From: Alphaproteobacteria bacterium
GTDB taxonomy: Bacteria > Pseudomonadota > Alphaproteobacteria > JAAXGF01
Reading direction: 5' to 3'
Length of the DNA stretch: 64,000 bases
Assembly: GCA_046758065.1 (NCBI GenBank)
Contig: JBHHZM010000001.1
Location: 7,822 to 71,821 of the forward strand
Shown here: piece after piece, positions 24,173-63,618 of the stretch
Position numbering within the stretch: the stretch's first letter is position 1
How the letters are laid out: every line of letters starts with the position of its first letter
Position numbers and translations under genes: made by a program
Notes under the pieces: model-generated
What the model was told of the DNA's origin: nothing
What the model saw: only the letters and a program-made list of their open reading frames with translations
The model's database searches: none

Positions 24173-24283
24173 CCGGGGAAAAGGTACCCCGCACGGCGGC
24201 GCGTCCGCCGATTCATCGTTGGTTTACTCTTTTTTGTTTGTCTGAGTTGTATTTACCGGTCACCAGCCGCAGGAAGGGCGCAG

Positions 24284-45259: not shown

Positions 45260-45429
45260 GCCTGCGCCGCGCGGAGCCAACCACCGTCCGAGCCCGCGGC
45301 GCCGGCGGTGCTCGCCCGTCAGCGCGAGCGCAACGGGTCCGCGCTGCGGCGACCGGCGGGCCGGTCGTGTCGCTTCGCTTCCATGACGTCGACGATCGCT
45401 GAGCCACATGTCGCCAGAATAGACTCGAG

Positions 45430-45587
45430 CGGTTAACCGATGACTAACGAATCCGGATACTTGGGTAACCTTAATAAAACCACCACATAATGTTTGGTTC
45501 TTATTTACAGCGCGGGCCGGGTGGCAATGATGATTCATGCGTCCCGACCGGAGCGAACGGTTAACGACGTTGTCCCGCGGTTAACCG
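45430..45587. promoter_or_regulatory. Cluster of GGTTAAC(C) palindromes in the divergent intergenic region
   Basis: CGGTTAACCG occurs at 45430-45439 and 45578-45587, CGGTTAACG at 45558-45566, and variants GGTAACC at about 45464 and GGTTAAT at about 45696. The first site reads TTAA-N7-CTAAC, one mismatch from a CtrA box. Confidence 0.3.
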
Positions 45588-47244: not shown

Positions 47245-47269
47245 CACGGCGAGCTGAAGAATTGCCGTA

Positions 47270-49375
47270 ATGGACGCCGGCTTCATCAGCCATTTGGCTG
47301 CCGCGGCCGCCTTTGCCGTTCTTACCCTTCTGCTGTTGGTCAGTTGGCGAGGACGGGGGGCGGGAACGCTGCTCATCGTCGCCAGCGTGACGACGATGGT
47401 CTGGGCTGCGCTGGCCGCCTATTTCGCCCTCGGCAACGTGGCGGAGACGGGCGGCCTGTTCTCGACGCCGGTGCGCGTGCTCGAGGTGCTGCGCAGTGCC
47501 GCCTGGATCGCGCTTCTGTGGGGCATTCTGACGATCAGCCTGCGGCGCGCCGGCGCGGCGCGCGTCCCGCGGGTCGGTCCCCTGATCACTGCGGGATTGT
47601 GTCTCGTTGTCCTCGCCCTCGATGTCTATCCCGATCTGGCGAGGATCCTGCGGTTGCCTTGCGAAGGTACCGCCTGCGCGGTGTTCGGCCGACTGGGCGT
47701 CGCCGTTATCGGCCTTGCCCTGGCGGAGAACCTTTACCGCAATACCGAATCCGAGCGTCGCTGGAGCATCAAGCACCTGTGTTTCGCCGTCGCCGGCATG
47801 TTCGTCTACGACATTTTTCTTTACGCCGACGCGATTCTCGTGCGGGCGCTCGATTACGAGCTCCTCGAGGTGCGCGGCATCACCAACGCGCTGATCGTTC
47901 CGCTGATCGCGGTATCGGCGGCGCGCAACCGCGAATGGCGGCTCGACATATTCGTCTCGCGGCGGGTCGTCTTTCACTCGGCGGCACTGATCGGCACCGG
48001 CGTCTACATGCTGCTGATGGCCGGTGTGGGCTATTACCTCAGAGAGTTCGGCGGCAGTTGGGGGGCGATGCTGCGCATGGCCTTCCTCTTCGGCGCCGCC
48101 ATCCTGCTGCCCATCATCCTGTCCTCCGGACGGCTTCGCTCGCGGCTCAAGGTTCTACTCACGAAGCACTTCTTCACGTACAAGTACGATTACCGCGAGG
48201 AGTGGCTGAATTTCATTCGTACGATTTCGTCGGCCACGCCGGGACGCAGCCTCCGCGACCAGACGATCCGCGCCATCGCCAACATCGTAGACAGCCCCGA
48301 CGGCGGTCTCTGGCTGCGCGGGGATGCCGATCGGTTCGATCTGACGACCACCTGGAACTTTGCCTGGCCGGCGGTGGAAGAACCGGCCGACGGCGCTTTC
48401 GCGCGGTTTCTCGAAGAGCGGCAATGGGTCGTGAATCTGAACGATTCCGCGCGGTCGGACAAGGCGCAGACGGGACCTCCGGTTCCCGAATGGTTGCGCG
48501 GGCTGAGTCGCGCCTGGCTCGTCCTTCCTCTGGTGCACGAGGAGCGGTTGTTCGGCTTTATCGTGCTCGGTCAGCCTCGCGCTCCCCGTCGGCTCAATTG
48601 GGAGGATTACGACCTGCTCAAGACCGTGGGCCGCCAGGCGGCGAGCTATCTGGCCCAAGAACAGGCGACGCGGGCACTCGCCGAGGCCCGCCAGTTCGAG
48701 GCGTTCAACCAGCGCTTCGCTTTCGTGCTGCACGATGTCAAGAATCTCGTGAGCCAGCTTTCGTTGATGGCGAAAAACGCGGCGAAGCACCGCGACAACC
48801 CGGCCTTTCAGGAAGACATGGTCCGGACAGTCGATGAATCGGTCGAGAAGATGAACCGTCTGTTGCAGCGACTCCACGCGGATTCGGCGAGCAGTCCCCG
48901 CTCTGTTGTCGAACTCGCCGGGCTGTTGCGCCGGATCGTCGACGAGCGCGCCGGCACGGCGCCCTCGGTCATCTTCGACGACGGCGGCGCGACCCTTGCC
49001 GTCGCCGTCGATGAAGATCGCCTCGCCGCGGTGGTCGAGCACCTGATCCAGAATGCCCTCGACGCCTCGCCCCCGGCCGCTCGGGTTCGGGTGCGCTTGT
49101 TTGCCAGCGGCGATGATGCGATCATCGAGGTCGAGGACAGTGGTGCCGGCATGGACGCCGAATTCATCCGCGAGGAACTCTTTCGGCCGTTCAAGACCAC
49201 CAAGGGGGCGGGGTATGGCATCGGCGCCTTCGAAAGCCGGGAGTTTGCGCGCCGCATGGGCGGTCGGCTCGATGTTTTCAGCGAGCCGGGCGAGGGGACG
49301 ACAATGCGATTGATCCTGCCTGTCGTAAAGGGTTCGCCCGAAACCACCGGCGATCGGCGAAAGGTGACGGCCTGA
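47270..49375 (+). CDS. prsK: PEP-CTERM system histidine kinase PrsK
   Basis: The 701-aa product has a multi-TM N-terminal region, a GAF-like domain, a HisKA H-box (FVLHDVKNLVSQL) and an HATPase_c domain. Its stop overlaps the prsR start (TGATG). Confidence 0.8.
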   Translation: MDAGFISHLAAAAAFAVLTLLLLVSWRGRGAGTLLIVASVTTMVWAALAAYFALGNVAETGGLFSTPVRVLEVLRSAAWIALLWGILTISLRRAGAARVPRVGPLITAGLCLVVLALDVYPDLARILRLPCEGTACAVFGRLGVAVIGLALAENLYRNTESERRWSIKHLCFAVAGMFVYDIFLYADAILVRALDYELLEVRGITNALIVPLIAVSAARNREWRLDIFVSRRVVFHSAALIGTGVYMLLMAGVGYYLREFGGSWGAMLRMAFLFGAAILLPIILSSGRLRSRLKVLLTKHFFTYKYDYREEWLNFIRTISSATPGRSLRDQTIRAIANIVDSPDGGLWLRGDADRFDLTTTWNFAWPAVEEPADGAFARFLEERQWVVNLNDSARSDKAQTGPPVPEWLRGLSRAWLVLPLVHEERLFGFIVLGQPRAPRRLNWEDYDLLKTVGRQAASYLAQEQATRALAEARQFEAFNQRFAFVLHDVKNLVSQLSLMAKNAAKHRDNPAFQEDMVRTVDESVEKMNRLLQRLHADSASSPRSVVELAGLLRRIVDERAGTAPSVIFDDGGATLAVAVDEDRLAAVVEHLIQNALDASPPAARVRVRLFASGDDAIIEVEDSGAGMDAEFIREELFRPFKTTKGAGYGIGAFESREFARRMGGRLDVFSEPGEGTTMRLILPVVKGSPETTGDRRKVTA

Positions 49376-50730
49376 TGGGTGCGCGGAATCGCAAACTGCT
49401 GATCGTTGAGGACGATTCGGGACTTCAGCGCCAATTGCGCTGGAGCTTCTCGGACTACGAGGTCTTCGTCGCCAAAGATCGGGACGGCGCTCTCGAATTG
49501 GTGAAAGATGAAAAACCGCCCGTGGTCACGCTCGACCTCGGCCTGCCGCCCGACGAGGACGGCACCTCGGAAGGCCTGGCGACGCTCGAGAATATTCTCG
49601 CACGGGCGCCGGACACCAAAGTCATCGTCGTCACCGGCAACGAGGATCGCGCCAACGCGGTAAAGGCCGTGGGTCTCGGCGCCTACGATTTCTACCAGAA
49701 GCCGATCGACGACGAGATGCTCGGCCTCATTATCCAGCGCGCCCATCAGCTTTACGAGCTTGAGGCGGACAACCAGCGGCTTACCGACGCTCGACGCGAA
49801 TCGACCTTGCGCGGGATCATCACGAGTTGTTCCGAGATGCTCAAGGTCTGCGGGACGATCGAAAAGATCGCGCCGGCCGACGTCAGCGTCCTGCTGGGCG
49901 GCGAGAGCGGCACCGGCAAAGAGCTTCTCGCGCGCGCGCTTCACGAACTGAGTGCGCGCCGGAAAGGTCCGCTCGTTACCATAAACTGTGCGGCGATTCC
50001 GGAGACCCTTCTCGAATCCGAACTCTTCGGGCACGAAAAGGGTGCTTTCACAGGCGCCGTCAAGCAGACCAAGGGCAAGATCGAGCTCGCCGACGGGGGC
50101 ACGCTGTTCCTCGACGAGATCGGCGACATTCCGGTCGCGCTACAGGTCAAGCTGTTGCGCTTCCTGCAGGAGCGGGTGATTGAACGGATTGGCGGGCGCA
50201 AGCAGATTCCCGTCGACGTGCGTATCGTCTGCGCCACCCACCAGGACCTTGACGCGCTTATCAAGGTGGGGCGGTTTCGCGATGACCTGTTCTACCGGAT
50301 CAGCGAAATCGTCATCAAGATCCCCCCGCTGCGCGACCGGGATAGCGATCCGATCGTCCTTGCTCGCAGTTTTCTGAACAAGTTCAACAAGGAGCTCGAT
50401 CGTTCCGTCCGCGGATTTACCGGCCCCGCGCTGGCGGCGATCACGAATTACCCCTGGCCCGGCAACGTGCGTGAGCTCGAGAACCGCATGAAGCGGGCCG
50501 TGATCATGGCCGAAGGCGTTCGCATTACCGCGGGCGACCTCGAACTCGAGGCGCCCGAAACCGAACCGATGCCGCTCGCCCTCAAGGACGTACGCGAGAT
50601 GGCCGAGCGCGACGCGGTGCAGCGAGCGCTCGCCGAAGTCGACGGCAACGTCTCGCACGCGGCAAAGCTCCTTGGTGTCAGCCGGCCGACGCTCTACGAT
50701 CTGATGCGGTATTACAATTTCAAATGGTGA
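49375..50730 (+). CDS. prsR: PEP-CTERM-box response regulator PrsR (sigma-54-dependent, NtrC family)
   Basis: It has a REC domain, a sigma-54 AAA+ domain (GESGTGKELLARALH, GAFTGA) and a C-terminal Fis-type HTH. Confidence 0.85.
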   Translation: MGARNRKLLIVEDDSGLQRQLRWSFSDYEVFVAKDRDGALELVKDEKPPVVTLDLGLPPDEDGTSEGLATLENILARAPDTKVIVVTGNEDRANAVKAVGLGAYDFYQKPIDDEMLGLIIQRAHQLYELEADNQRLTDARRESTLRGIITSCSEMLKVCGTIEKIAPADVSVLLGGESGTGKELLARALHELSARRKGPLVTINCAAIPETLLESELFGHEKGAFTGAVKQTKGKIELADGGTLFLDEIGDIPVALQVKLLRFLQERVIERIGGRKQIPVDVRIVCATHQDLDALIKVGRFRDDLFYRISEIVIKIPPLRDRDSDPIVLARSFLNKFNKELDRSVRGFTGPALAAITNYPWPGNVRELENRMKRAVIMAEGVRITAGDLELEAPETEPMPLALKDVREMAERDAVQRALAEVDGNVSHAAKLLGVSRPTLYDLMRYYNFKW

Positions 50731-50827
50731 ATCCGACAGCCGCAGGCGCTCGCCGAATCTGGCCTGCGCCCCGCACGGTCACGGGGAATCGGGTGGATCT
50801 TCGGCGTTACAGTGAAGGAGGCCCAGC

Positions 50828-53650
50828 GTGTTGAATTCCAGTCAACGGAGCCGCTTGCCGGTTCGTCAAACGATCGGTCGCCTTGTCGCCGCGTCGGTTC
50901 TTGCACTGACGCTCGCTGGTGTCCCCGCCCTTGCGGCCGCCGACCGCGAACAGTCCAACCGGCACTACGAGGACGCGCAAGCCTACGTCAAGCAGGGCGA
51001 CGTGAATGCCGCGGTGATCGAGCTCAAGAACGCACTGCAGAGCGACCCCGACAACGTTGCCGCGCGCTATCTGCTCGGTGAGATCTATGTGCGGACGGGA
51101 AACGGCGCGTCCGCCGAAAAGGAGCTCAAAAAGGCGCGCGAGCGCGGCCTCGACGAGGCGCGCGTGGCCGTTGCCTTGGCGCGGGCTTACCTGCTGCAGG
51201 GCAAGTTCAACGCCGTTCTCGAAGAGATTCCACGCGGCGAACGCGGCAACGATATCGAAGCGGCGATCGCCCTTGAACGCGGCCAGGCGTACTTCGGCCT
51301 CAACCGGGTCGACGAGGCCCTCGCCGCGTTCGAAGAGGCGCACCGTCTCAAGCCGGAGGATGCGGGGGTCAACATGGCGCTGGCGCGCGTCTTCGTTAGC
51401 AAGGGAGACATCGCGGCGGCCGAGGAACAGGCCGACACGGCGTTGTCGCTCGCACCCGAAATCGCCGATGTCTGGGTTCTCAAGGGCGAGCTTCGGCGTC
51501 TCCAACACGACCTCGAAGCCGCCGTCTCGCACTTCGACAAAGCGATCGAGATCCAGGCGAACAACGTCCCGGCGCGACTCGGCCGTGCGGCGGCGCTGAT
51601 CGACCTCAATCGTGACGACGCGGCGTTGGCCGACATCGACGTGGTGGCGAAGGCGGTTCCGAACCACCCGCTCGCATCCTACCTCGCGGCGCTCCTCGCG
51701 GCGAAGCGGAAGGACTATGGCACGGCCCAGGACCGCCTGCTGGAAGTTTTCCGCGTCCTGAACGATCACCTGCCGAGCATCTTTCTGTCCGGCGCCGTCA
51801 GTTACGCCCAGAACCAGCTCGAGCAGGCGGAGCACCAACTGAGACGTTACCTCAAGGCCGTCCCCCGCCACGCGGCGGCAAGAAAACTCCTCGGCGCCAC
51901 GCTGATCCGCAAGAACCAACCGGCCGGCGCGATCGAGGCGTTGCTGCCGGTGATCGAGGACGCGCCCGACGACGCCCAGGCGCTGGCCCTCCTGGGCAGC
52001 GCGTATATGCAGGACCGGCAGTACGCCAAGAGCACGGAGTATTTCGAGAAGGCGGCGGCGGCGTCACCGGAAGCCGCGTCGGTCCGCACGCAACTCGCGC
52101 TGAGCCGCATGGCGACCGGAGAATCCCAGCTTGCGCTTCAGGATCTCGAATCGGCCTTCGAACTCGACAGCGATCAAGGCCAGGCGGGAATTCTCCTCGC
52201 GCTCGCCCAACTGCGAAGCGGCAACTACGACGAAGCGATTAAGACTGCCGACGAGCTCGGCAAAAGACTCCCGGACAATCCGCTGCCCTTCAACCTCAAA
52301 GGCGCTGCTTTGATCGGCAAGGACATGTTCGCCGAAGCGCGGCAGAGCTACGAACAGGCGCTCAAACTGCAGCCGGATTACTTTCCTGCGACGATGAACC
52401 TGGCGCAACTCGATATGCGCGAGGGTCGGCCCGACGAGGCGAAGGCGCTCTACGAGTCGATCCTGGAAGTTGACGCCGGCCATGCGGGCGCGCTGATCGC
52501 CCTCGCGCGGATGGCGATGAGCGAGAAGCGTCCCGATGACGCCGTCGCGTTGCTCGACCGGGCGCGCGCGGCCAATCCGAAAAGCCTGCAGGCGCGGCTG
52601 TACCTGGTAAACCTCCACATCCAGCGGCGCGAGGCCGGAAAGGCGCTGACCGTGGCCCGTGAGCTCGAACAGATCGGCCCGCAGAGTCCGCAGGCCCTCG
52701 ACGCTCTCGCCAGGGCGCAGATCGCCAACGGCGAGGCGGAGAGCGCCGTCGCCACCTACCGCCGCATCATCGCGTTCAATAACGCTTCAGCCGGGGTCTA
52801 CCAGCGTTTAGCAGCGGCACAAGTGGTGGCGGGTGACATGGCGGGAGCCCGGGAATCGCTGGCGACGGCGCGCTCGGTTGACCCCAAGTTCCTGCCCGCA
52901 CGGATTGCTTCCGTCGAACTCGAGCTGCGCGACGATAAGCCGGATGCCGCGCTCGCGCTGGCGAAGGAACTGCGCGACGAGCAGCCCGACTCCCCCGTCG
53001 GCGACATGCTCGTGGGCGATGCGCTGATGCGCACGGAGCGGTTTGCCGAGGCCGCCGAGGCTTATGCCCGGGCGAGCGGGAAAAAGAACAGCGCCGCGCT
53101 CGCCGTACGCCGGTACAACGCACTCGTCAAAAGTGGCGATACGGACCGCGCGCTGGCGATTCTCAAGGACTGGGTCGACGCCAATCCCGACAATCACGCC
53201 TCGCGGCTGGTTCTTGCCGGCGCCTATCTGAAGGCGCGACGCTATCCCGAGGCAATCGAGAATCACGAACAGCTCCTCAAGATCGATCCGAAAAACCCGG
53301 TGATCCTTAACAACCTCGCATGGATCTATCTTGAGACCGGCGACCCGCGGGCTCTCGACTACGCCGAGAAGGCTCATGAAAACGCACCCCAGTCGGTTTC
53401 GATCACCGATACGCTGGGCTGGATTCTGACACGCCAGGGGCAGGGCGAACGAGGACTCGAACTGCTCAAGAAAGCGAGCGCTCAGGCGCCTGCGGAATCC
53501 GAAATCCGCTTCCATTTGGCGGTGGCGCTGAACAATCTCGGCCGGCGCGACGAGGCGCGCCGTGAGCTCGAAAGCGTGGTCAAGTCGGGAAAACACTTCG
53601 CCGCCATGGACGAAGCGCGCTCCCTCCTGCGCGAACTGTCGCAGCAATGA
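50828..53650 (+). CDS. prsT: PEP-CTERM system TPR-repeat lipoprotein PrsT
   Basis: The 940-aa product has a signal peptide and is almost entirely tandem TPR repeats. It lies immediately after prsK-prsR. Confidence 0.8.
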   Translation: MLNSSQRSRLPVRQTIGRLVAASVLALTLAGVPALAAADREQSNRHYEDAQAYVKQGDVNAAVIELKNALQSDPDNVAARYLLGEIYVRTGNGASAEKELKKARERGLDEARVAVALARAYLLQGKFNAVLEEIPRGERGNDIEAAIALERGQAYFGLNRVDEALAAFEEAHRLKPEDAGVNMALARVFVSKGDIAAAEEQADTALSLAPEIADVWVLKGELRRLQHDLEAAVSHFDKAIEIQANNVPARLGRAAALIDLNRDDAALADIDVVAKAVPNHPLASYLAALLAAKRKDYGTAQDRLLEVFRVLNDHLPSIFLSGAVSYAQNQLEQAEHQLRRYLKAVPRHAAARKLLGATLIRKNQPAGAIEALLPVIEDAPDDAQALALLGSAYMQDRQYAKSTEYFEKAAAASPEAASVRTQLALSRMATGESQLALQDLESAFELDSDQGQAGILLALAQLRSGNYDEAIKTADELGKRLPDNPLPFNLKGAALIGKDMFAEARQSYEQALKLQPDYFPATMNLAQLDMREGRPDEAKALYESILEVDAGHAGALIALARMAMSEKRPDDAVALLDRARAANPKSLQARLYLVNLHIQRREAGKALTVARELEQIGPQSPQALDALARAQIANGEAESAVATYRRIIAFNNASAGVYQRLAAAQVVAGDMAGARESLATARSVDPKFLPARIASVELELRDDKPDAALALAKELRDEQPDSPVGDMLVGDALMRTERFAEAAEAYARASGKKNSAALAVRRYNALVKSGDTDRALAILKDWVDANPDNHASRLVLAGAYLKARRYPEAIENHEQLLKIDPKNPVILNNLAWIYLETGDPRALDYAEKAHENAPQSVSITDTLGWILTRQGQGERGLELLKKASAQAPAESEIRFHLAVALNNLGRRDEARRELESVVKSGKHFAAMDEARSLLRELSQQ

Positions 53651-53683: not shown

Positions 53684-54667
53684 CTATTGGCCGGCGAGCT
53701 TGCGCTCCCAGGCGAGCGCGGTGGCGACGATGGTTTCGAGATCGTCGTGCTGTGGTGTCCAGCCCAGAACGCTGCGGATTCGCTTGCTGTTGGCGACCAG
53801 CCGGGGCGGATCGCCGGCGCGTCTCTCGCCTTCGTTCACCGTAATCGTGGCGTCGGCGGTCGCCATCACGCAGTCGAGAACCTCGCGCACGCTATAGCCC
53901 TTGCCGTACCCGCAGTTGAGCACCACGCTTTCACCGCCCGATTCGAGATAGGAGAGCGCGTCGAGGTGAGCGCGGGCAAGATCCTCGACGTGGATGTAGT
54001 CGCGAATTCCCGTGCCGTCCGGGGTGTCGTAGTCGGTGCCGAAAATGGTCACCGAGGGACGGACGCCGACGATCGCCTCGCAGGCCACCTTGATCAGATG
54101 GGTCGCGCCCGGGAAGCTCTGCCCGATGCGGCCGCCGAAGTCCGCCCCCGCGGCGTTGAAGTAGCGCAGCGTGACATGGCGGAAGCCCGAGGAAGCGGCA
54201 TGATCGCGGAGAATCCACTCGCTCATCAGCTTCGAGGCGCCGTAGGGGTTGATCGGGCTGGTTGGCGCGGTCTCGTCGGCGCCGCCGTCGGGCGGTTCGC
54301 CATAGACCGCGGCGGTGCTCGAGAAGACGAAGCGCTCGACCCCGAAGGCGGCGCAGCACCGCACGAGACGGAGCGTATTGGCGGTGTTGTTGCTGTAGTA
54401 GTCGAGCGGGTGAGCGACCGATTCCGGAACCACGATGCTGGCGGCGAAGTGAAGCACGGCGGCGAAGCGCCGCTCGTCGAAGAGTTGACGAAGGCGCTCC
54501 TCGTCGGCCAGATCACCGACCACGAGTGACGCGCCGAGCACCGCCTCGCGACGACCCGTCGAAAGATTGTCGTAGACGACGACGTCGTGGCCCGCCGCGA
54601 CGAGCTGTCGCACAACGTGAGAGCCGATGTAGCCGGCGCCGCCGGTGACCAGGACTGTTTCGGGCAC
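53684..54667 (-). CDS. galE: UDP-glucose 4-epimerase
   Basis: Motifs VLVTGGAGYIGSH and YxxxK are present. A GGAGG SD precedes the ATG at 54667. Confidence 0.9.
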   Translation of the reverse strand: MPETVLVTGGAGYIGSHVVRQLVAAGHDVVVYDNLSTGRREAVLGASLVVGDLADEERLRQLFDERRFAAVLHFAASIVVPESVAHPLDYYSNNTANTLRLVRCCAAFGVERFVFSSTAAVYGEPPDGGADETAPTSPINPYGASKLMSEWILRDHAASSGFRHVTLRYFNAAGADFGGRIGQSFPGATHLIKVACEAIVGVRPSVTIFGTDYDTPDGTGIRDYIHVEDLARAHLDALSYLESGGESVVLNCGYGKGYSVREVLDCVMATADATITVNEGERRAGDPPRLVANSKRIRSVLGWTPQHDDLETIVATALAWERKLAGQ

Positions 54668-54678
54668 GTCGCCTCCGC

Positions 54679-56517
54679 CTAGATCTCCGGCAATTCCTTG
54701 CTCGCACCTTCGGTTTCCTCGCGGAGATCCGAGAGTGCGCGACCGAGAGATTTTGCCGAGGTCTGCCGCCCGGCATTTCCGCCGGTACGGCGTTTCTTCG
54801 GCCGGGCGATGTCCGCAGTGCCCGTGAAGGCGCGGCCGGCCTCGCTCAGTTCGCTGGCGAGCACCACGAACTTTTCGACGGTTTCGCGGCTCGCCCGGGC
54901 GGCGGCGTTCATCTCGGTGGCGGCGCCCGCGATCACCTTGCCCGCCGCCCCATCGTCATCGAGGACGGTGAGCAGCCGGTCCTGGGTGTCGACCACTTGG
55001 TTGAGAATGGGCGTCACCGACAGTGCGAGGCTTTCGACCACGGTCTGCAGGCCGCTGAAGGCGGCCGACGTCTTGGCCAGGTCCTTGCCGCTGGTCGCGA
55101 GCGCCGCGTTGGTGATCTGTTCGACCCGGTCCAGGGTCTTCTTGACCAACGCATCGAACTGCTTCGAATGCTTGTCGACGTCGCGCCCCAGATTGGACGA
55201 GAACCGCTTGAGCTGGGCGGCGAGCTGCTTGTTTTCCTTGGCATGCTGGCTGTGCTCCACCTCGATCGCGGCGCGCAGTTCCTTGGAGAAAGTCTCGGCC
55301 TGCGCCGTGATCTGCCGGTTGAGCGTGTCGGCCAACCCGGCGAATGCCTTTTCCACGTCGGTGGCGATCGCGCTCGACGATTTGAGCAGCTCGTTGACCT
55401 CGCCGAGCTGGTCGCCAAAGCGCGTTTCGAGTTCGCTCACGAACCGCTCCAGGGCCGCGGCGAGAAGCTGCTGCACGCGCTCGCCTTCGTCCCGGGTCGC
55501 CTGGTTGACCGCCTCGGTCAGCAAGGTCATGGGCCGGGCGAGCGCCGCCCGGATCGATGCGCTCAGCGCCTCGGAGGCGGCGCGGCCCTGGTTCGCAACG
55601 GCCTTGACGAGTTTCTCGTTCTCCTTGCCCAGCGCGGTCTTGAGGTCGCTTCCGAGGGTCGCGACCGCGCGTTGCAGAACGCCGGCCTCGCTCTCGATCG
55701 TCCGGGTCACGGCGTTCAGGTCCGGGGCGTTGCCGCCGAGTCGGAAGAGACCGTCGATGCGACGGCAAATCTCGCCGGTTTGCTGGTAGCGCAGCGCGAC
55801 CACGGCGTGATGGACGAAGCCGATTGCTACCGCGAAGCACAGCGCGAGGAACAGCGCGATCAGGCCGCCTTGGGCGCCGACGGCGAGTGCGCCGTACGAA
55901 ACCTCGCCCCATCCCGCGGTCGTGGCGTTCGTCCGCAGATGTTCGAGACCGTCGAGGAGTCCGAAGGCGAGACCGAGCACGCCGAGTCCGCACAGGATGG
56001 CCGGCAGCCGCCGGAAGAACCAGACGAAGAGCCGCGCATCGACCAGAATCTCCCGGCGGAAATAGGTCGCCGCCGGGACGACCGCGCGATAGCGGTCCGC
56101 GTCGCGGTGGCCGTCGTTCGGTGCGCTGTCTTCGGCCTGAAGCGTGATGCTGTAATTGGCGGCGAGATCGACGAGTTCATCGGCTTCTCCGAACGCGGTG
56201 AGAAAGCTGCGCCGGTCGGTGTGCTCGCCGTCGCGTTGGCGTGTCTCGAGCCGCGCCAGGCCGGAGAGGGCGTGCCGCGCCTTCATCCAGTCGCCGAGAC
56301 CGATCGCCACGAAGGTGAGCACGAACACGCTGGCAGCGGCCAGCAGCAGGCCGAATACGAACGAGATATAGCCTTGTGTGCTCAGGGCTCCGGCGTCCCC
56401 GCCGTCGAGCAGCGTCGAAGTGAACCAGGCCACGACGCGCGGACCCCGGGCGTACCCCTGAACGCCGGTGAACGCCGATACGGCGAGTGCCAGAATGATC
56501 CAGAACCGCATCAGCAC
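54679..56517 (-). CDS. Membrane protein with four N-terminal TM helices (MotA/ExbB-like topology) and a C-terminal coiled-coil tail of about 350 aa
   Basis: Layout is TM1-TM2, a roughly 100-aa cytoplasmic loop, TM3 (LPAILCGLGVLGLAFGLL, weakly reminiscent of the MotA/ExbB PxxGLxGT motif) and TM4. Heptad-like helical repeats run to the C-terminus. It ends 12 nt upstream of galE and is cotranscribed with it. Confidence 0.6.
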   Translation of the reverse strand: MLMRFWIILALAVSAFTGVQGYARGPRVVAWFTSTLLDGGDAGALSTQGYISFVFGLLLAAASVFVLTFVAIGLGDWMKARHALSGLARLETRQRDGEHTDRRSFLTAFGEADELVDLAANYSITLQAEDSAPNDGHRDADRYRAVVPAATYFRREILVDARLFVWFFRRLPAILCGLGVLGLAFGLLDGLEHLRTNATTAGWGEVSYGALAVGAQGGLIALFLALCFAVAIGFVHHAVVALRYQQTGEICRRIDGLFRLGGNAPDLNAVTRTIESEAGVLQRAVATLGSDLKTALGKENEKLVKAVANQGRAASEALSASIRAALARPMTLLTEAVNQATRDEGERVQQLLAAALERFVSELETRFGDQLGEVNELLKSSSAIATDVEKAFAGLADTLNRQITAQAETFSKELRAAIEVEHSQHAKENKQLAAQLKRFSSNLGRDVDKHSKQFDALVKKTLDRVEQITNAALATSGKDLAKTSAAFSGLQTVVESLALSVTPILNQVVDTQDRLLTVLDDDGAAGKVIAGAATEMNAAARASRETVEKFVVLASELSEAGRAFTGTADIARPKKRRTGGNAGRQTSAKSLGRALSDLREETEGASKELPEI

Positions 56518-56709
56518 GTGATGTTCCTCACGATCGCCGGGAGACGCTCGCCGCCGGCGTATGACGATCGCCGGGCGTGGCGCACGGCATGACTACGGCC
56601 TGCCGTCGCCGCGGGCGTGGCCATGGCAGTCTACACCGCCATTGGGACGAAAATACCGTAAAGTTTGTATGAATCGGCAAGCCGGACGCGCCGCTGCCCG
56701 GCGCAGCGG

Positions 56710-57711
56710 TCATGACGCGCCGACCATCCCCCGGATCTCGCGCGCGGTGGCCGGCCGGCCGCCAAGCTCGTTGAAGAAGTAGTCGAGGTAGCGCTCGATG
56801 CGCGCCAGGAACACGGCGAGATCGTCGTCGCTGCGCACGTAAGGCGTGTTGCCGGGTTCGAGCGACGGGCTGTGGTAGGCGAGACAGAAGACCCGGTGGC
56901 CGGTGGCGAACAGGGCCTCGGTCAGCCGTCGGTGCTCGGCGTGGTCGATGCCTTCGGGGGTGAGCTTGCTCCATTCGAGCAGCGCCAGTCGAGCAAAGAC
57001 GCCGGGGAGCCGCAGGCGCGCGCCGGGCGCCCCGGTCAAGGCGGGATAGAGCGCAGGCCCGGCGCGCGACAGGCAGCCGAAGAACCCGGCGCTGAGCGGA
57101 ATTTCGAGCAGCCGACCGCCCGGGCCGAAGCGGTAAGGCTTGGCGCCGCAACGGCGGAAGTCGGGTCCGAAGTCGCGGCGCATGTCGGCCGCCGGCACCA
57201 CGCTGGTGTCGATCTCGTAACCGAGCTCGGCGAGGATGTCGCCGGTCGCCGGGCCGACGCCATAGCGCCCCGCCTTGTAGGTAACCGGCCTGACGCCGAA
57301 GTTTTCCTCGATCGCCGCGGTGAGCCGGCGCAGCTTCTCGCGTTCGAGCCCGCGCGGCAGGTTGCCGGGGTAGGAGTTGTGCGCCGAGACCTCCTCGTCG
57401 AACGGCGGGTTGACCCAAGGGTGGAGGTGGGCGCCGATCTCGCACAGACCGTCCTCGCAGAATTCGCGCAAGGGCCGGTATCCCGCCTCCTGCGTCGCGA
57501 TGGGGTAATCGACGACGTAGACGGGACGGACGCCGTAGCGCTCGTAGACGCGATGTGCCCGCGCCTGATGACGGGTCGCGCCGACCGCGGTATTGGCGCG
57601 CGACAGCGGCCGCGACCAGTCGAATTCCTCTTCGGTGTCGACCACCACGACGAGGCGCGGCGCCGACGACGCCGGGATGTCGACGACCGAGCGGGCATCC
57701 GGGTTGAGCAT
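56710..57711 (-). CDS. Polysaccharide deacetylase family protein (PEP-CTERM-locus / WalW-like subfamily)
   Basis: A CE4/NodB-like region is present (VVVVDTEEEFDW ... HLHPW). The start was chosen at MLNPDARS. Confidence 0.75.
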   Translation of the reverse strand: MLNPDARSVVDIPASSAPRLVVVVDTEEEFDWSRPLSRANTAVGATRHQARAHRVYERYGVRPVYVVDYPIATQEAGYRPLREFCEDGLCEIGAHLHPWVNPPFDEEVSAHNSYPGNLPRGLEREKLRRLTAAIEENFGVRPVTYKAGRYGVGPATGDILAELGYEIDTSVVPAADMRRDFGPDFRRCGAKPYRFGPGGRLLEIPLSAGFFGCLSRAGPALYPALTGAPGARLRLPGVFARLALLEWSKLTPEGIDHAEHRRLTEALFATGHRVFCLAYHSPSLEPGNTPYVRSDDDLAVFLARIERYLDYFFNELGGRPATAREIRGMVGAS

Positions 57712-57860
57712 GCGGTCTCCGGCCGGGTTGCGGATGTCGGCGGGCGCGGCCGACGACGGCAGCGACGCCTTGCGCCCGGGGCATTGTAAACAATGCCGGT
57801 CGGGTATTGACACCCGCTAACCGTTGATCTCCCGCCCCGTATGCGGAACCGCCGCCGGCT

Positions 57861-57888
57861 CTTGAATCCCGCGTCTCGGTTCCTACAT
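57861..57888 (+). promoter_or_regulatory. Putative sigma-32 (RpoH)-type heat-shock promoter upstream of hsp20
   Basis: CTTGAA, a 15-nt spacer and CCTACAT match the alphaproteobacterial RpoH consensus CTTG-N17-CYTATNT. Confidence 0.3.
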
Positions 57889-57994
57889 TTCCGTCGGTCG
57901 GGAGGCCGATGATGGCTCCCACCGCCGACCCGGCCGGTTGTTCGGCGGGTCTGGTCTGCAACCGATGATATCGCTTCTGAAGGAGGATATTGCG

Positions 57995-58465
57995 ATGCGC
58001 ACCTACGATCTCACCCCCCTGTTCCGTTCGACGGTCGGCTTCGACCGCTGGAACGATCTGTTCGATACGGTCTTCGGCGGCGAGGAAACCGCCGCGACCT
58101 ACCCGCCCTACAACATCGAGAAGCTCGGCGAAGACAACTACCGCGTCACCCTTGCGGTCGCCGGCTTCAGCGACGACGACCTGAACATCACGGTTCAGGA
58201 GAACTTGCTGGTGGTTTCGGGCAAACGTTCCGAGACCCGCGACAAGGATGCGAAGTACCTCTATCGCGGCATCGCCAATCGCGCCTTCGAGCGCAAATTC
58301 AGCTTGGCCGACCATGTCCGCGTCAAGAGCGCCACGCTGACCAACGGCATGCTCACGATCGAACTCGTCCGCGAGCTGCCCGAGGCGATGAAGCCGCGCC
58401 AGATCGCCATCGAAACCGCGCCCGTCGCCGGAAAGAAGGTGATCGAAGGCGCCAAGGCGGCCTGA
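57995..58465 (+). CDS. Hsp20/alpha-crystallin family small heat-shock protein
   Basis: An alpha-crystallin domain is present (YPPYNIEKLGEDNYRVTLAVAGFSDDDLNI). A GAAGGAGG SD lies 8 nt before the ATG. Confidence 0.9.
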   Translation: MRTYDLTPLFRSTVGFDRWNDLFDTVFGGEETAATYPPYNIEKLGEDNYRVTLAVAGFSDDDLNITVQENLLVVSGKRSETRDKDAKYLYRGIANRAFERKFSLADHVRVKSATLTNGMLTIELVRELPEAMKPRQIAIETAPVAGKKVIEGAKAA

Positions 58466-58630
58466 CCGCCACGTGTAGCCGCCCGGCCGCCGCGCGCGGC
58501 CCGGGGGTCGAACGGGGGCCCCGCGAGAGGGACGCCCTTTCGTTCGACCGCCCGATCCGGATCGGATTAAGCCTTCGTTAACCGTGATCCTGCTATCCCG
58601 GCTATGAACCTCCGAGAGGTGTCCACCGGG

Positions 58631-58996
58631 ATGACCGACGCATCAGTCGACGAACGCTTTGCGCGCATGTTCTACGCGCGCGTGCCGCCGGCGCTGGTCA
58701 ACAGCTTCAGCGAAGAACAGATCGCGGCCATCCGCGACGCCTTCGGCGCCGAGCGGTGGGATCGCCACCCGGTCGACGTTCGCGGCACCGTGCCGCTGCC
58801 GTTCCGCCGCTGGTACTTCGTTTTCGTCGCCGGTCCCGACAAGCGCTCGAAAAAGCGCAAACGCAAACAGGCTGCCCGCGAGCGGCGCCCGGCGCGGCGC
58901 ATTTTCGGTGCCGCGGTATCGACCTTTGCGCTGATCTGGCTCGTCCTGCTCGTCCTCTATCTTCTGCTTCCCGCCGAACTGATCGAAGCGCTGTAG
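58631..58996 (+). CDS. Hypothetical protein with a K/R-rich segment and a C-terminal TM helix
   Basis: The 121-aa product has a KKRKRKQAARERR stretch followed by a hydrophobic tail (FALIWLVLLVLYLLL). No family could be assigned. Confidence 0.4.
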   Translation: MTDASVDERFARMFYARVPPALVNSFSEEQIAAIRDAFGAERWDRHPVDVRGTVPLPFRRWYFVFVAGPDKRSKKRKRKQAARERRPARRIFGAAVSTFALIWLVLLVLYLLLPAELIEAL

Positions 58997-59014: not shown

Positions 59015-60427
59015 TCAGAGCGCGGGTTTCGAGCCGGCCCAGGGGCGCACGCGTTCGAGCGCCGCGCCGACCCGGAGCACGCCGAGATCGTCATACCGCC
59101 GGCCGACGATCTGCAATGCCGTGGGCAGGCCGTCGCGCGAGAAGCCCGAAGGCACCGTCAGCGCCGGGCACTGGCTGACGAAGTTGAATACGCTCGTCAT
59201 GTCGTAGCCGTGATAGCGGCCCTCGGCGTCCTCCTCATCGAACTGGTCGTCCGAGCCGCCGACCGGCCGGGCGGGCAGCGCCATGGTGGGGCAGAGCAGG
59301 GCGTCGAAGCGTTCGAGAATCGGGGCCAGCGCCTGCCACTGACGGGTGCGCACGAACTCTAGCCGCTTGAAATCGACCGCGTTCATGGCCAGAGCGGTGT
59401 CCATCAGCCTGACCACGCCGGGATCCATGCGGTCGCGCCAACCTTCGAGGTGCTGGCCGAAGAAGCTGGCGAGATAGACGCTCCAGTGCGCGACCCAGGC
59501 GTCGACGACCTCGCGGCTCCAGCCGAGTTCAACCTCCTCCACCCGGGCGCCGGCATCCGCAAGCGCCGCGGCGGCGGCGCGCGTATTGGCCGCGACGTCG
59601 TCGTCGAGCGCGTAGAATCCGAGGTCGAGCGAAAGGGCGAGCCTGAGGCCCGAGACATCGCCGGGCGGTGGAACGACCACGTCGAGCGGGGGGCTTAGCG
59701 TCTGGATGTCGCGTTCGTCGGGACCCTGGGTCACGGCGAGGAAAAGCGCGACGTCGGCGACCGTGCGCCCGAGTGGTCCGAAGTGCGACAGCGCGTCGAA
59801 CTGGCTGGGCAGGATCTCGAAAGGGATGCGCCCGAAGCTCGGCTTGAGGCCGACCACGCCGCAGAGCGCCGCCGGTATGCGCACCGAGCCGCCCATGTCC
59901 GAACCCTCGGCGAGCGGGACGCAACCGGTCGCCACCGCAGCACCCGAGCCGCCCGAGGAGCCACCGGGCGAGCGCTCCGGGTTCCAGGGATTGCGGGTAA
60001 CGCCCCAGAGCGGGCTTTCGGTGAACGACGAATGGGCGAACTCGGGCGTTGTTGTCTTGCCCACGACGATAGCGCCGGCGGCCTCGAGCTTTTCGACGAT
60101 CACCGCGTCGCGCTCGGGCACCCAATGCTGGTAGACGCGCGAGCCCATGGTCGTGGTCTTGCCTTTGGTCGGGGTCATGTCCTTGATGGCGACGGGAACG
60201 CCGTGGAGCGATCCCAGCGGCGCGCCCGCGGCGACCGCCTGTTCGGCGGCGCGGGCCTTGGCCAGGGCCTCGTCGGGGTAGGTGAAGCAGAAACAGTTGA
60301 GCTTCGGATTGACCTCGTCGATGCGGGCGAGACTGTTCTCGATCACCGCGACGGGCGAAAGGGCGCCTTCGGCGATGCGTCGCGCGAGTTCCGTGGCCGG
60401 GGTATAGGCGAGCGCGAGGTCGGTCAT
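59015..60427 (-). CDS. Amidase (amidase-signature family)
   Basis: The amidase signature GGSSGGSGAAVA and a Ser-cisSer-Lys triad context are present. Confidence 0.85.
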   Translation of the reverse strand: MTDLALAYTPATELARRIAEGALSPVAVIENSLARIDEVNPKLNCFCFTYPDEALAKARAAEQAVAAGAPLGSLHGVPVAIKDMTPTKGKTTTMGSRVYQHWVPERDAVIVEKLEAAGAIVVGKTTTPEFAHSSFTESPLWGVTRNPWNPERSPGGSSGGSGAAVATGCVPLAEGSDMGGSVRIPAALCGVVGLKPSFGRIPFEILPSQFDALSHFGPLGRTVADVALFLAVTQGPDERDIQTLSPPLDVVVPPPGDVSGLRLALSLDLGFYALDDDVAANTRAAAAALADAGARVEEVELGWSREVVDAWVAHWSVYLASFFGQHLEGWRDRMDPGVVRLMDTALAMNAVDFKRLEFVRTRQWQALAPILERFDALLCPTMALPARPVGGSDDQFDEEDAEGRYHGYDMTSVFNFVSQCPALTVPSGFSRDGLPTALQIVGRRYDDLGVLRVGAALERVRPWAGSKPAL

Positions 60428-60552
60428 GAACCCGAGGTTACGCCGTTGCCGGCAACCGTTCCAGCGCTACGGCGCCGTGCCGCCGCGACGCGCCTGCATC
60501 GTAGGGCGGCCCATGGCGCCGCGGCCGCCGGTTGTGATATGAGGCGAGACGG

Positions 60553-61773
60553 TTGGACGGTCGGAGGACGGGAGGGATGGTCAAGGGGGCGGCAAGCGAG
60601 CGACCGTTCGACGCGGATGCGACGGCATTGACCGCCGGTCAGCGCCGGCGCAGCCTCGCCGTGGCCATGGCGAGCGCCGCCGCCGCCGGCCTCACCATCG
60701 GCCTCACCGTGCCGCTCCTGGCGCTGATTCTCGAGCACGACGGCGTCGATACCACGCTCATCGGTCTCAACAGTGCCATGGCGGCGCTCGCCATCGTCGT
60801 CTCGGCGCCTTTCACGCCGCGACTGGTCCGGCGCTTCGGCACCCTGCCCTCGATGTATCTCGGTATCGCACTCGCGGTCGTCGCCATTCTGTTGCTCGCC
60901 GTCTTTCGCGAGCTTTCCGCCTGGTTCGTGCTGCGCTTCGTCGTCGGGCTCGGCATGGCGGTCCACTGGGTGGTCGGCGAAGCCTGGATCAACGCGGTCG
61001 CTGGCAACGAGAACCGCGGCCGGGTGATCGGGCTCTACGCCACCGTTCTTTCCGCCGGCTTCGCGACCGGCCCGCTGGTGGTCGCCGTGGTCGGCATCGA
61101 AGGCGTCACGCCGTTCCTCGCGAGCGCGGGACTTCTCGCACTGGGCGCGCTGCCACTGCTCTTCGCCCGCGGCGTCGCGCCGCCGATGGCGGTCCGGACG
61201 ACGACCACCCTGGCGCAGTTCTTCCGCCACGCCCCGACCACGCTGGCCGCGGCGCTGGCCGCCGGGTTTTCGGATTCGGCGCTGTTTGCTTTGCTGCCGC
61301 TCTACAGCCTGCACAGCGGATTCGATCAAGCGACGGCGGTGACGATGCTGTCGGTGTTCGTCGCCGGCAATCTGGCGCTGCAACTGCCCATCGGCTGGCT
61401 TGCCGACCGGATCGACCGCCGCCTGCTTCTCATGGTCTGCGCTGCCGTGGGTGTCGTCGGGCCGGTCCTGCTGCCGTTCGTGATCGACGTTCCACTGCTC
61501 GTCTGGCCGGTGCTGTTCATTTGGGGCGGCACCATCGAGGGCCTCTACACGGTCGGGCTCACGCTCCTCGGCGAACGCTTCGAGCTTGGCGATCTGGCCG
61601 GCGCCAACGCCGCCTTCGTCATGATCTATTCGGCTGGCGGCGTCGCGGGACCGTCGCTCGCCGGCGGCGCGATGGACGTCTGGGATCCTCACGGACTCTC
61701 GCTGGTGGTGGCGCTCGCCGGCGCCGCCTTCCTCGCGGTCGTCGTCGTTCGCCGCGCCCGGGCGAGAGAGTAA
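60553..61773 (+). CDS. MFS transporter
   Basis: It has 12 predicted TM helices and the MFS motif region (GxxxDRxGRR-like: ADRIDRRLLL). Confidence 0.8.
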   Translation: MDGRRTGGMVKGAASERPFDADATALTAGQRRRSLAVAMASAAAAGLTIGLTVPLLALILEHDGVDTTLIGLNSAMAALAIVVSAPFTPRLVRRFGTLPSMYLGIALAVVAILLLAVFRELSAWFVLRFVVGLGMAVHWVVGEAWINAVAGNENRGRVIGLYATVLSAGFATGPLVVAVVGIEGVTPFLASAGLLALGALPLLFARGVAPPMAVRTTTTLAQFFRHAPTTLAAALAAGFSDSALFALLPLYSLHSGFDQATAVTMLSVFVAGNLALQLPIGWLADRIDRRLLLMVCAAVGVVGPVLLPFVIDVPLLVWPVLFIWGGTIEGLYTVGLTLLGERFELGDLAGANAAFVMIYSAGGVAGPSLAGGAMDVWDPHGLSLVVALAGAAFLAVVVVRRARARE

Positions 61774-61819
61774 CGGCTGCGCCAACGCCTTCGAGCCGGC
61801 CGCCCGGTGGCCGCGGGCC

Positions 61820-62662
61820 TCATTCGTTCGCGGCAATCGCGATCTGCACGTCCCTCTGGCGCATCCTTTCCCGACGGGCGAGAAGAACACCGGCAAGTAC
61901 AACGCCGATGCTGACCAGCAGGACGATGATCGTCGCCAGGGCGTTGATCTCGGGGCTGAGACCGAGCCGCACCTTGGAAAACACCACCATGGGCAGGGTG
62001 CTCGATCCGGGTCCGGAGACGAAACTCGCGATCACGAGATCGTCGAGCGACATGGTGAACGACAACAGCCAGCCCGACGCCAGCGCCGGGGCAATGATCG
62101 GCAATGTGATGACAAAAAATACTTTGCTCGGTCGGGCGCCGAGATCGAGCGCCGCTTCCTCGATCGATAGGTCGACGCTGACCAGCCGCGACTGCACGAT
62201 CACTGCTACGTAAGCCATGGAAAAAGTGATGTGCGCGATGGTAATCGTGGTCACACCCCGTCCCTTGGGCCAACCGAGCAGTTGTTCGAGCGCGACGAAG
62301 AACAGCAGCAGCGACAGGCCGATGATCACGTCGGGCATGACCAGTGGTGCCGTCACCATGCCCGTCATGCCGGTGCGCCCCGGAAACCGGCCATAGCGGG
62401 ACAGCGCGAACCCGGCCATGGTGCCAAGGACGACGGCGACCGAGGCGTTCATGGTCGCGATCCGCACGCTGAGCCAGGCGGCATTGAGAATCTGTTCGTT
62501 GTGCAGCAGTTCGCCATACCACTTGGTGGAAAATCCGGCCCAAACCGTGACCAGCTTCGACTTGTTGAACGAGTAGACGACCAGCGAAAGGATCGGCGCA
62601 TAAAGGAACGCGAAGCCGAATGCCAAACAGGAAATCAGGAAGACCGAGCGATTGCGGCTCAT
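61820..62662 (-). CDS. Polyamine-type ABC transporter permease (PotC/PotI-like)
   Basis: Six TM helices and the EAA-loop region (EEAALDLGARPSKVFFVITLP) are present. The long 527-aa track ORF is this gene extended out of frame across the next gene. Confidence 0.85.
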   Translation of the reverse strand: MSRNRSVFLISCLAFGFAFLYAPILSLVVYSFNKSKLVTVWAGFSTKWYGELLHNEQILNAAWLSVRIATMNASVAVVLGTMAGFALSRYGRFPGRTGMTGMVTAPLVMPDVIIGLSLLLFFVALEQLLGWPKGRGVTTITIAHITFSMAYVAVIVQSRLVSVDLSIEEAALDLGARPSKVFFVITLPIIAPALASGWLLSFTMSLDDLVIASFVSGPGSSTLPMVVFSKVRLGLSPEINALATIIVLLVSIGVVLAGVLLARRERMRQRDVQIAIAANE

Positions 62663-63618
62663 TGCCCTCCCTCCAGTTCTTTCGTCTGGACGTTTTGATA
62701 AATCATCGTCGGTACGACGAGCAGCAGCAGAATGACGATCGCGACCGCCGACGCCACCGGCCAGTCCCGGTTGGCGAAGAATTCGTTCCACAGCACGCTG
62801 CCGATCATCAGGGTCTTGGGACCGCCGAGCAGCGCCGGGATCACGAACTCGCCCACCGCGGGGATGAAGACCAGCAGCGAGCCGGCGACGATCCCGGGCA
62901 CCGAAAGCGGCAGGGTGATCGTCAGGAACGCCTTGAACGGCCGGCATCCGAGATCGGCCGCCGCTTCCAGCAGGGCGATGTCCATGCGTTCGAGGTTGGC
63001 GTAAAGCGGCAAGACCATGAAAGGCAGGTATGAATAAACGATACCGAGGTAGACCGCGAAGTTGGTGTGCATCATGACGATAGGCTCGTCGATGATCCCG
63101 ACCGATTGCAGGAAGTTGTTGATGAGGCCGTTGTTCTGGAGGATTCCGATCCAGGCGTAGACCCGGATCAGGAACGATGTCCAGAACGGCAGACTGACCA
63201 GCATCAACAGGACGATGCGCCATGCCGGATTGGCCCGGGCCATGCCGTAAGCCATGGGATAACCGATCAGCAGGCACACCAAGGTGGAAATGAAAGCCAC
63301 CTTGATCGAGTTCAGATACGCTTTCCAGTACAGATCGTCCTCGAGAAGGAACAGATAGTTGCCCAGGTTGAGCTTGATCGTGAGGTAGCTGTGTTCCGCC
63401 CACTCGAACAGCGAGGTGTACGGTGGGCGGGCGATGACCATCTCGGCAAGCGAGATCTTGACGACGATGATGAACGGCACCACGAAAAACAGCGCCAGCC
63501 AGAAATACGGCACGGCGACGACGAAGGTTCGCCCCGAAATTCCGATTCGTTCGAGAGATGCCGACAGCCGGGCGCGATACCGGGCCAGGGCGGCGATGGG
63601 GGCGCGGTCGTCGTTCAC
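62659..63618 (-). CDS. Polyamine-type ABC transporter permease (PotB/PotH-like)
   Basis: An EAA loop (EAAADLGCRPFKAFLTITLP) is present. A 4-nt ATGA overlap links it to the downstream permease gene. Confidence 0.85.
   Translation of the reverse strand: MNDDRAPIAALARYRARLSASLERIGISGRTFVVAVPYFWLALFFVVPFIIVVKISLAEMVIARPPYTSLFEWAEHSYLTIKLNLGNYLFLLEDDLYWKAYLNSIKVAFISTLVCLLIGYPMAYGMARANPAWRIVLLMLVSLPFWTSFLIRVYAWIGILQNNGLINNFLQSVGIIDEPIVMMHTNFAVYLGIVYSYLPFMVLPLYANLERMDIALLEAAADLGCRPFKAFLTITLPLSVPGIVAGSLLVFIPAVGEFVIPALLGGPKTLMIGSVLWNEFFANRDWPVASAVAIVILLLLVVPTMIYQNVQTKELEGGQ

Follow-up and report, generated by a model that had tools for sequence, protein, structure and literature searches.

A stretch of 64,000 nucleotides from an Alphaproteobacteria bacterium (contig JBHHZM010000001.1, positions 7,822 to 71,821 of the forward strand) was analysed and is referred to here, at its full length, as the window. 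The gene under study occupies 54679-56517 on the reverse strand of the window and encodes a relative of ZorA, the A subunit of the anti-phage Zorya motor, beside genes of an XrtA/PEP-CTERM exopolysaccharide (EPS) system. The gene and the parts of its product, including transmembrane (TM) segments TM0 to TM3, were assigned as follows; residues marked Ec are those of Escherichia coli ZorA.

54679-56517, reverse strand: ZorA-like gene, member of a ZorB-less 'degenerate' ZorA clade; 612 aa from GTG 56517, 610 aa from ATG 56511
56458-56511, reverse strand: TM0, extra N-terminal hydrophobic helix, residues ~3-20, preceding an xWFxxxLL segment that matches the canonical ZorA N-terminus
56296-56364, reverse strand: TM1, residues ~52-74, equivalent of the peripheral TM1 of ZorA
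56023-56295, reverse strand: membrane-proximal cytoplasmic domain, residues ~75-165, with an RA(V/T)VPA beta-hairpin; R144 corresponds to Ec R108
55945-56022, reverse strand: TM2, residues ~166-191, LPAILCGLGVLGLAFGL; P172 corresponds to Ec P136, which is kept, and L183 replaces Ec T147
55798-55878, reverse strand: TM3, residues ~214-240; L222 replaces Ec S184
54832-55743, reverse strand: cytoplasmic helical tail, residues ~259-562, with a 3.68-residue (hendecad-like) hydrophobic periodicity
54838-55071, reverse strand: clade-specific tail tip, residues ~483-560, AAFxGLQTVVESLALSVTPILNQV...MNAAARASRETVEKFVVLA, the best-conserved part
54682-54750, reverse strand: C-terminal amphipathic helix and terminal LPEI/LP[EK]L motif, residues ~590-612

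The open reading frame (ORF) is a real gene. Its GC content at the three codon positions (0.70/0.48/0.84) was that of the genuine genes of the window, where GC is ~68%, and a GAGGA sequence was found 7 nt 5' of the GTG start; public gene calls begin at the ATG, two codons after the GTG. Four hydrophobic segments were located by hydropathy at residues ~1-20, 52-74, 166-191 and 214-240, with a K/R-rich loop of ~90 aa between the second and the third. Beyond residue ~260 the protein was almost wholly helical in a predicted AlphaFold2 (AF2) monomer model, and the helical tail amounts to ~350 aa. An original prediction, made from the sequence alone, had described a four-TM protein with a cytoplasmic loop and a tail of this length, and that description held. 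The weak PxxGLxG motif mentioned there was found at residues 171-179 (LPAILCGLG), aligned with LPGILTGMG of ZorA.

Relationship to ZorA was assessed with family models, pairwise alignment and structural comparison. The PADLOC ZorA1 model PDLC00598 matched residues 51-570 at E=8e-62. The NCBIfam ZorA models matched at E=3e-32 and 5e-29, with scores of 112 and 101 bits that are far under the curated cut-offs of 250 and 750. E. coli ZorA (PDB 8QYD) was aligned to residues 135-414 of the single sequence at E=1e-20, and to a profile of the clade described below at E=2e-55. When the AF2 model was used as a query in Foldseek, four E. coli ZorA entries were returned first (E~1e-5), followed by Shewanella ZorA and then by ExbB and TolQ, the ExbB match being weak (probability ~0.95, E 0.2-1). 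The original prediction had spoken of ZorA-like architecture; these comparisons show the protein to be a true sequence homologue of ZorA, an identity that is well supported. Homology with type I ZorA (E. coli, 8QYD; Shewanella, 8VVN) extends over TM1-TM3, the membrane-proximal domain and at least the first ~250 residues of the tail, and the two have in common the LPxxLxGxG motif of TM2 with its proline kink, the RATVPA beta-hairpin, the long tail with a 3.67-residue periodicity and the best fold matches. With ExbB, TolQ and MotA (PF01618) the protein shares the superfamily fold, and TM0 gives it a MotA-like four-TM topology; it differs from them in having a coiled-coil tail and neither an ExbD/TolR/MotB partner nor the conserved TM threonines.

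The MotA/ExbB/TolQ model PF01618 itself gave no match to the protein at E<0.01. The canonical ZorA1 proteins of E. coli and Nitrosospira likewise gave none and one canonical representative matched at 8.7e-4, so the missing match was dropped as a sign of degeneracy. Pfam and NCBIfam scans found no Wzz/GNVR domain and no methyl-accepting chemotaxis protein (MCP) signal domain; for this reason, and because topology and homology are those of ZorA, identification as a chain-length determinant or an MCP, which would have removed the stator relationship, was ruled out. No NCBIfam model names the protein, and no PEP-CTERM model of NCBIfam/TIGRFAM covers it. Members of its clade are labelled 'hypothetical protein' in public records and fall in clusters of 1-3 metagenomic sequences. 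A precomputed Pfam label, PF28082 'ZorA-like_t1', indicates that the family is already catalogued. In the library searched no paper linked ZorA to PEP-CTERM, nothing relevant came up for 'ZorA-like' proteins or for MotA with exosortase, and orphan ZorA is not mentioned in the two structural Zorya papers.

In the 5:2 motors (MotAB, ExbBD, TolQR, GldLM, ZorAB) a ring of A subunits turns around B-subunit helices that bear an ion-binding aspartate. In ZorA, T147 and S184 contact Asp26 of ZorB and form the ion-selectivity filter, and the T147A/S184A double mutant is non-functional; E86A/E89A, at the Ca2+ site, abolishes defence, and P163 and E164 of the periplasmic loop grip ZorB (PMC11946911).

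Relatives were collected by an exhaustive profile search of 1.84 billion representatives, which returned 854 at E<=1e-3 and 190 at E<=1e-30. It was this search that revealed the clade; a word-indexed homologue search had given 6 proteins with the single sequence and the same 6 with a 35-sequence profile. The metagenome scan was run with the smaller alignment, the larger one being too divergent, and a scan of GTDB genomes found homologues in 2 metagenome-assembled genomes (MAGs) only. The best 150 relatives were aligned with two canonical type I ZorA from complete Zorya operons (control loci L010, Nitrosospira, and L011, E. coli), and the sequences fell cleanly into two groups. Sequences with a hydrophobic residue at both the T147 and the S184 positions were taken as the degenerate group (38 cluster representatives), and the canonical set comprised 113. 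In a neighbour-joining tree of the core region the 38 degenerate sequences formed one clade with no canonical member within it.

Among the 113 canonical representatives H134, P136, T140, T147, F148, F181, S184, I188, T195, E86 and [E/D]89 were invariant or nearly so, with threonine or serine in every sequence at T140, T147 and S184 and in 108 at T195. All 38 clade members have a hydrophobic residue at the two positions by which the group was defined, T147 being replaced by L/F/V and S184 by L/A/F, and the commonest residues at T140 (L/A/I) and T195 (G/A/W) are also non-polar. Assignment of L183 and L222 of the protein to the T147 and S184 positions was the same in phmmer, MAFFT and profile alignments. 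The Ca2+-site pair E86/E89, almost always E-[ED] in canonical ZorA, is lost in the clade; at these positions the protein has tyrosine/threonine in one alignment and asparagine/isoleucine in another, non-acidic in both. The periplasmic TM2-TM3 loop measures 11 aa in the clade versus 16 aa in canonical ZorA and is half as polar, while TM0 was detected in ~30 of the 38 clade members as against 2 of the 113. One protein outside the degenerate clade, P0183, is in a mixed state, with threonine at the T147 position and leucine at that of S184; it could represent an intermediate or a separate loss event.

It is well supported that the clade has lost its ion pathway, along with the Ca2+ site and the loop that grips ZorB, and loss of the polar filter residues is strong but not conclusive evidence of motor inactivity. 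A degenerate stator had been offered in the original prediction as an alternative and gains support from these losses. The other reading given there, that the protein is a novel energy-coupled part of EPS export, finds less favour: the T147/S184 pair is hydrophobic throughout the clade, the other polar TM2/TM3 residues invariant in canonical ZorA are mostly replaced by non-polar ones, and the Ca2+ site has gone as well.

The tail both resembles that of canonical ZorA and differs from it. Its hydrophobic periodicity of 3.68 residues, measured over 300 residues, stood ~3.5 standard deviations above shuffled sequences and equals that of the E. coli ZorA tail, which gave 3.70. A right-handed bundle has been described for the ZorA tail (PMC11946911), with which a hendecad-like rather than heptad periodicity agrees. 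Median tail length was 340 aa in the clade versus 448 aa in canonical ZorA. The tip of the tail is the most conserved region of the clade proteins and is unlike canonical C-termini; its consensus reads AAFxGLQxVVESLxxxVxPxLxQV...AAAxASRETVE[RK]F..LAERLRE, followed by a low-complexity linker and then L..AL..LR; most members end in LP[EK]L. When the clade tip was compared with canonical tail ends by hhalign, only a weak match was obtained, to E. coli residues ~553-633 at a probability of 43%.

These data bear on whether the gene could be a decaying, functionless remnant of a stator gene. The loss of catalytic and ion-path residues would fit decay, as would a membrane core that is much more divergent in the clade than in canonical ZorA (mean distance 0.86 vs 0.55). 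Such a remnant would hardly be expected to persist as intact, full-length ORFs in more than 20 loci, to keep L553, L598 and P610 invariant in 35 clade sequences at ~25% overall identity, to have gained and conserved TM0, or to show gene-like codon usage, and we consider decay very improbable.

The genes around the ZorA-like gene that concern the argument are listed below. The PEP-CTERM part of the window consists of epsB, prsK, prsR and prsT only (45856-53650, forward strand); the remainder is unrelated housekeeping.

53684-54667, reverse strand: galE, UDP-glucose 4-epimerase, 11 bp downstream of the ZorA-like gene
56710-57711, reverse strand: polysaccharide-deacetylase-family gene, 333 aa, upstream of the ZorA-like gene; no Pfam or NCBIfam match at E<0.01
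50828-53650, forward strand: prsT, tetratricopeptide-repeat (TPR) protein of the XrtA/PEP-CTERM system, bearing a Sec signal peptide; gene convergent to the ZorA-like operon
49375-50730, forward strand: prsR, PEP-CTERM-box sigma-54 response regulator
47270-49375, forward strand: prsK, XrtA/PEP-CTERM histidine kinase
45856-47244, forward strand: epsB, XrtA/PEP-CTERM priming glycosyltransferase, TIGR03013

No gene for a B subunit was found among the neighbours. Two ZorB queries run by tblastn gave nothing in the window or in related loci L001-L009, blastp with ZorB, ZorC and ZorD gave nothing labelled in L012-L021, and precomputed gene lists of the related loci contained no OmpA, MotB_plug/MotB or ExbD Pfam domain. 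The absence of an adjacent MotB/ZorB partner, proposed for the window in the original prediction, is accordingly seen there and in ~18 related loci. There was no PADLOC match among the neighbours in the window; in the related loci the effector search covered ZorC and ZorD but not ZorE, ZorF or ZorG. In both control operons zorB lies directly downstream of zorA. In many loci only 11-30 bp separate the stop codon of the ZorA-like gene from galE, or from prsT where that gene runs towards it, which leaves no space for a B gene. The ZorA-like gene appears to be transcribed alone in L016, L017 and L024, where its upstream neighbour lies on the opposite strand.

It could be supposed that the protein is still an ion-driven 5:2 motor, with its B subunit (a TolR/ExbD/MotB paralogue or an unrecognised small TM protein) encoded elsewhere, and that it couples the proton-motive force to export or assembly of EPS or PEP-CTERM proteins. 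The A-subunit fold and motifs have been kept (the P136-equivalent kink, glycine-rich TM2, beta-hairpin and long tail), use of the proton-motive force by envelope polysaccharide systems is plausible, and the genome was viewed through a window of 64 kb. The clade-wide losses at T140/T147/S184/T195, the Ca2+ site and the periplasmic loop argue in the other direction, as do the ~18 loci with no B-type neighbour, set against the canonical operons. Nor did the clade alignment contain a conserved acidic or polar residue in TM0-TM3 that would compensate. A motor with a distant partner is in our judgement unlikely.

The second line of evidence for the nature of the clade is its genomic position. Conservation in other PEP-CTERM loci, a check suggested in the original prediction, gave a positive result: the ZorA-like gene was convergent to prsT-prsR-prsK-epsB in 12 distinct loci, at 28-57% identity and GC of 0.49-0.72. 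In the close family (47-57% identity) it is flanked by the deacetylase-family gene on one side and prsT on the other, and galE may be present or absent (window, L001, L002/L004, L003/L015, L005, L006 and L013). L014 agrees on the prsT side, its upstream side lying beyond the contig end, and on the short contig L012 the deacetylase-family gene alone is visible beside the ZorA-like gene. Distant members (28-30% identity), among them a 49%-GC lineage on ~1 Mb contigs, are also convergent to prsT-prsR-prsK-epsB (L016, L017, L018/L019 and L024); the L018 cluster holds in addition an exosortase-A-associated O-ligase (TIGR03097, above cut-off) and glycosyltransferase family 4 (GT4) enzymes. In L020 the gene adjoins a TIGR04063 XrtA glycosyltransferase (stp3; E=1e-182), and L021 has the same type of arrangement, judged from gene sizes only. 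Exceptional or uninformative loci were L022, L023, L025 and L026; in L022 and L023 a deacetylase-family gene lies upstream and GT4 genes around, with no prsT within reach. The ZorA-like clade is thus almost invariably located within XrtA/PEP-CTERM EPS clusters, an observation that is well supported, and PrsK, PrsR, PrsT, EpsB, stp1-3 or the exosortase-A-associated O-ligase share its neighbourhood in nearly all loci examined. The gene is present in only a minority of XrtA loci. Loci without it exist (L007 and one JGI contig), which marks it as an accessory.

Cotranscription with galE and with the deacetylase-family gene had been proposed in the original prediction. galE follows after the 11-bp gap; cotranscription with the deacetylase-family gene is uncertain because a spacer of ~190 bp containing a hairpin separates the two. 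The hairpin is an inverted repeat, CCGCTGCGCCGGGCAGCGG, at 56688-56706 (reverse strand) just past the deacetylase-family stop codon; it is GC-rich, has no T-run and is followed in the spacer by an AT-richer stretch, and together these may constitute a transcript boundary or an internal promoter. A scan for sigma-54 promoters (TGGCAC-N5-TTGC, <=2 mismatches) gave fewer matches than chance and none in the 190 bp upstream of the ZorA-like gene. An ORF of 595 aa at 56528-58315 (reverse strand) was considered as the upstream neighbour and rejected as a spurious Arg/Pro-rich frame, typical of high-GC DNA, that overlaps the real gene at 56710-57711.

A GalE homologue follows the ZorA-like gene in L001, L003, L013, L015 and probably L005 (where it is unlabelled), and is not found in this position in L002 or the distant relatives. 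The deacetylase-family gene is the upstream neighbour in 9-11 loci. Its product was examined as a dedicated partner, and this idea was weakened by the size of the family (>7,900 close homologues sharing ~60% identity, and matched by neither Pfam nor NCBIfam) and by its occurrence beside prsT where the ZorA-like gene is missing, though it does recur in divergent loci. The protein has DTEEEFDW and HLHPW motifs reminiscent of carbohydrate esterase family 4 enzymes, is habitually convergent to prsT in alphaproteobacterial XrtA loci, and looks like an unmodelled XrtA-associated family. In L022 a multi-TM protein of 183 aa with no family (9400-9951, forward strand) is encoded between the deacetylase-family and ZorA-like genes; it was not seen in other loci.

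The same genomic data address another possibility: the gene could belong to anti-phage defence of the Zorya type, as a minimal ZorA, a remnant of one or a new subtype without ZorB, and its place in an EPS locus would then be incidental. EPS is a phage receptor or barrier, which makes a link to defence conceivable; the closest characterised relatives are all anti-phage ZorA, and one very divergent member (L026) lies near phage-like genes. The clade differs from ZorA, however, in having no ZorB, ZorC or ZorD and in sitting in XrtA/PEP-CTERM EPS clusters rather than defence operons. By tblastn and blastp no relative of these three proteins adjoined it, and the Pfam gene lists contained no other effector of nuclease or helicase type. 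In E. coli Zorya every gene and the ion pathway are needed for defence (PMC11946911). Its position in the XrtA cluster is stable over lineages at 28-57% identity, without mobile-element or defence-island neighbours, and its tail tip is unlike the canonical tip that recruits ZorC and ZorD. A role as a resident defence element is improbable on this evidence.

Other features of the window were recorded during the analysis. Adjoining epsB upstream and divergent from it, the gene at 44552-45580 (reverse strand) encodes an MshE-N-type cyclic-di-GMP-binding domain (NF053729, E=2e-18) with a weak LapA retention-module match, and its product may feed a cyclic-di-GMP signal into the EPS system. Genes for an EAL-domain phosphodiesterase (25152-26897) and for a response regulator (24173-25138) lie further upstream. 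A low-GC island at ~39900-42000 (GC 0.52 vs ~0.68), carrying a lysine-rich ORF of up to 649 aa (39925-41874, reverse strand) and adjoining small ORFs with weak DUF4258 and SMEK_N matches, was probably acquired horizontally. An Hsp20 gene (57938-58465, forward strand) and a gene for a 130-aa protein with a C-terminal TM segment (58604-58996, forward strand) are divergent from the deacetylase-family gene. L008/L009 have both of these neighbours, and in L013 a small ORF of comparable size lies beside an Hsp20 homologue; as the pair was not seen beside distant ZorA-like genes it is probably unrelated to them. The ORFs at 60424-61902 and 61820-63403 (both reverse strand) look spurious or over-extended: the first overlaps a major facilitator superfamily transporter at 60538-61773 (forward strand), and PotI-like similarity in the second is confined to residues 251-522.

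Taken together, the clade is described as ZorA paralogues that have no ZorB and a degenerate ion path and that were recruited to polysaccharide loci associated with exosortase. The reading to which we lean, with slightly more confidence than doubt, is that the protein is a ZorB-independent degenerate stator that now serves the XrtA/PEP-CTERM EPS system as a membrane-anchored coiled-coil stalk; its identity and genomic association are well supported, and the mechanism is one that we infer. Neither a partner of the ZorB type nor an ion pathway would be used by the clade any longer. Homology makes it most likely that the protein still forms a membrane-embedded oligomer, pentameric like ZorA, from which a right-handed coiled-coil stalk may project an estimated 40-50 nm into the cytoplasm, a length obtained by scaling from the E. 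coli tail, which has 507 residues and measures 70 nm in its model. The core of the rotor has turned purely hydrophobic, an N-terminal TM helix has been added, and the strongest conservation has shifted to the clade-specific tail tip and the C-terminal LP[EK]L peptide. Since the gene lies almost invariably inside XrtA/PEP-CTERM EPS clusters, the protein may be an accessory to that system and act, without rotating, as a scaffold or a signalling stalk. The tip could dock a cytoplasmic component, much as the canonical ZorA tail recruits ZorC and ZorD; candidates are the cytoplasmic domains of PrsK and PrsR, EpsB, GT4 enzymes, and the soluble deacetylase-family and GalE enzymes. PrsT was considered as a partner of the C-terminal peptide, on the idea of TPR-peptide binding, and was ruled out by topology: PrsT has a Sec signal, and the tail is cytoplasmic by homology and the positive-inside rule.

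Several points weigh against the stalk reading. The most conserved neighbour, PrsT, is periplasmic and so cannot bind a cytoplasmic tip, the association consists mostly of convergent adjacency rather than a shared operon, and the deacetylase-family gene adjoins prsT even where the ZorA-like gene is missing (L007, JGI contig). The most divergent member (P0187 at 9876-11639 of L026; 23% identity, no PF28082 label) has a different, partly phage-like context. Every clade member derives from a metagenome or a MAG. The quality of the AF2 monomer model is low (pLDDT 49), and no residue-level claim rests on it. Not every 5:2 motor depends absolutely on polar filter residues, and a B subunit encoded elsewhere in the genome would be compatible with the 64-kb view and may exist. 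The neighbours recorded in L026 were Rad52/DUF968, Sipho_Gp157, an unknown protein of 843 aa and UDP-GlcNAc 2-epimerase, with no prsT block.

More tentatively, and with doubt prevailing, the protein might be the first A subunit of a 5:2 rotary motor to have become independent both of a B subunit and of ion flow, forming a ZorA-derived membrane stalk by which regulators or cytoplasmic machinery of the XrtA/PEP-CTERM EPS system are physically linked to the inner membrane. If so, the conserved tip and the LP[EK]L C-terminus of the stalk could, for example, signal the state of the envelope or of EPS to PrsK/PrsR, or keep soluble enzymes that modify sugars close to the priming glycosyltransferase.

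A coherent clade with the ZorA ring and stalk, none of the conserved polar pore residues and no B gene beside it suggests that this scaffold can be reused without rotation, or with some other partner. A Zorya component is also tied to a non-defence system, which bears on the exchange of parts between defence modules and housekeeping envelope machines. To exosortase/PEP-CTERM biology, with its questions of what PrsK/PrsR sense and how the cytoplasmic assembly steps are organised, the protein offers a concrete accessory factor, with the tail tip as the obvious candidate interaction surface.

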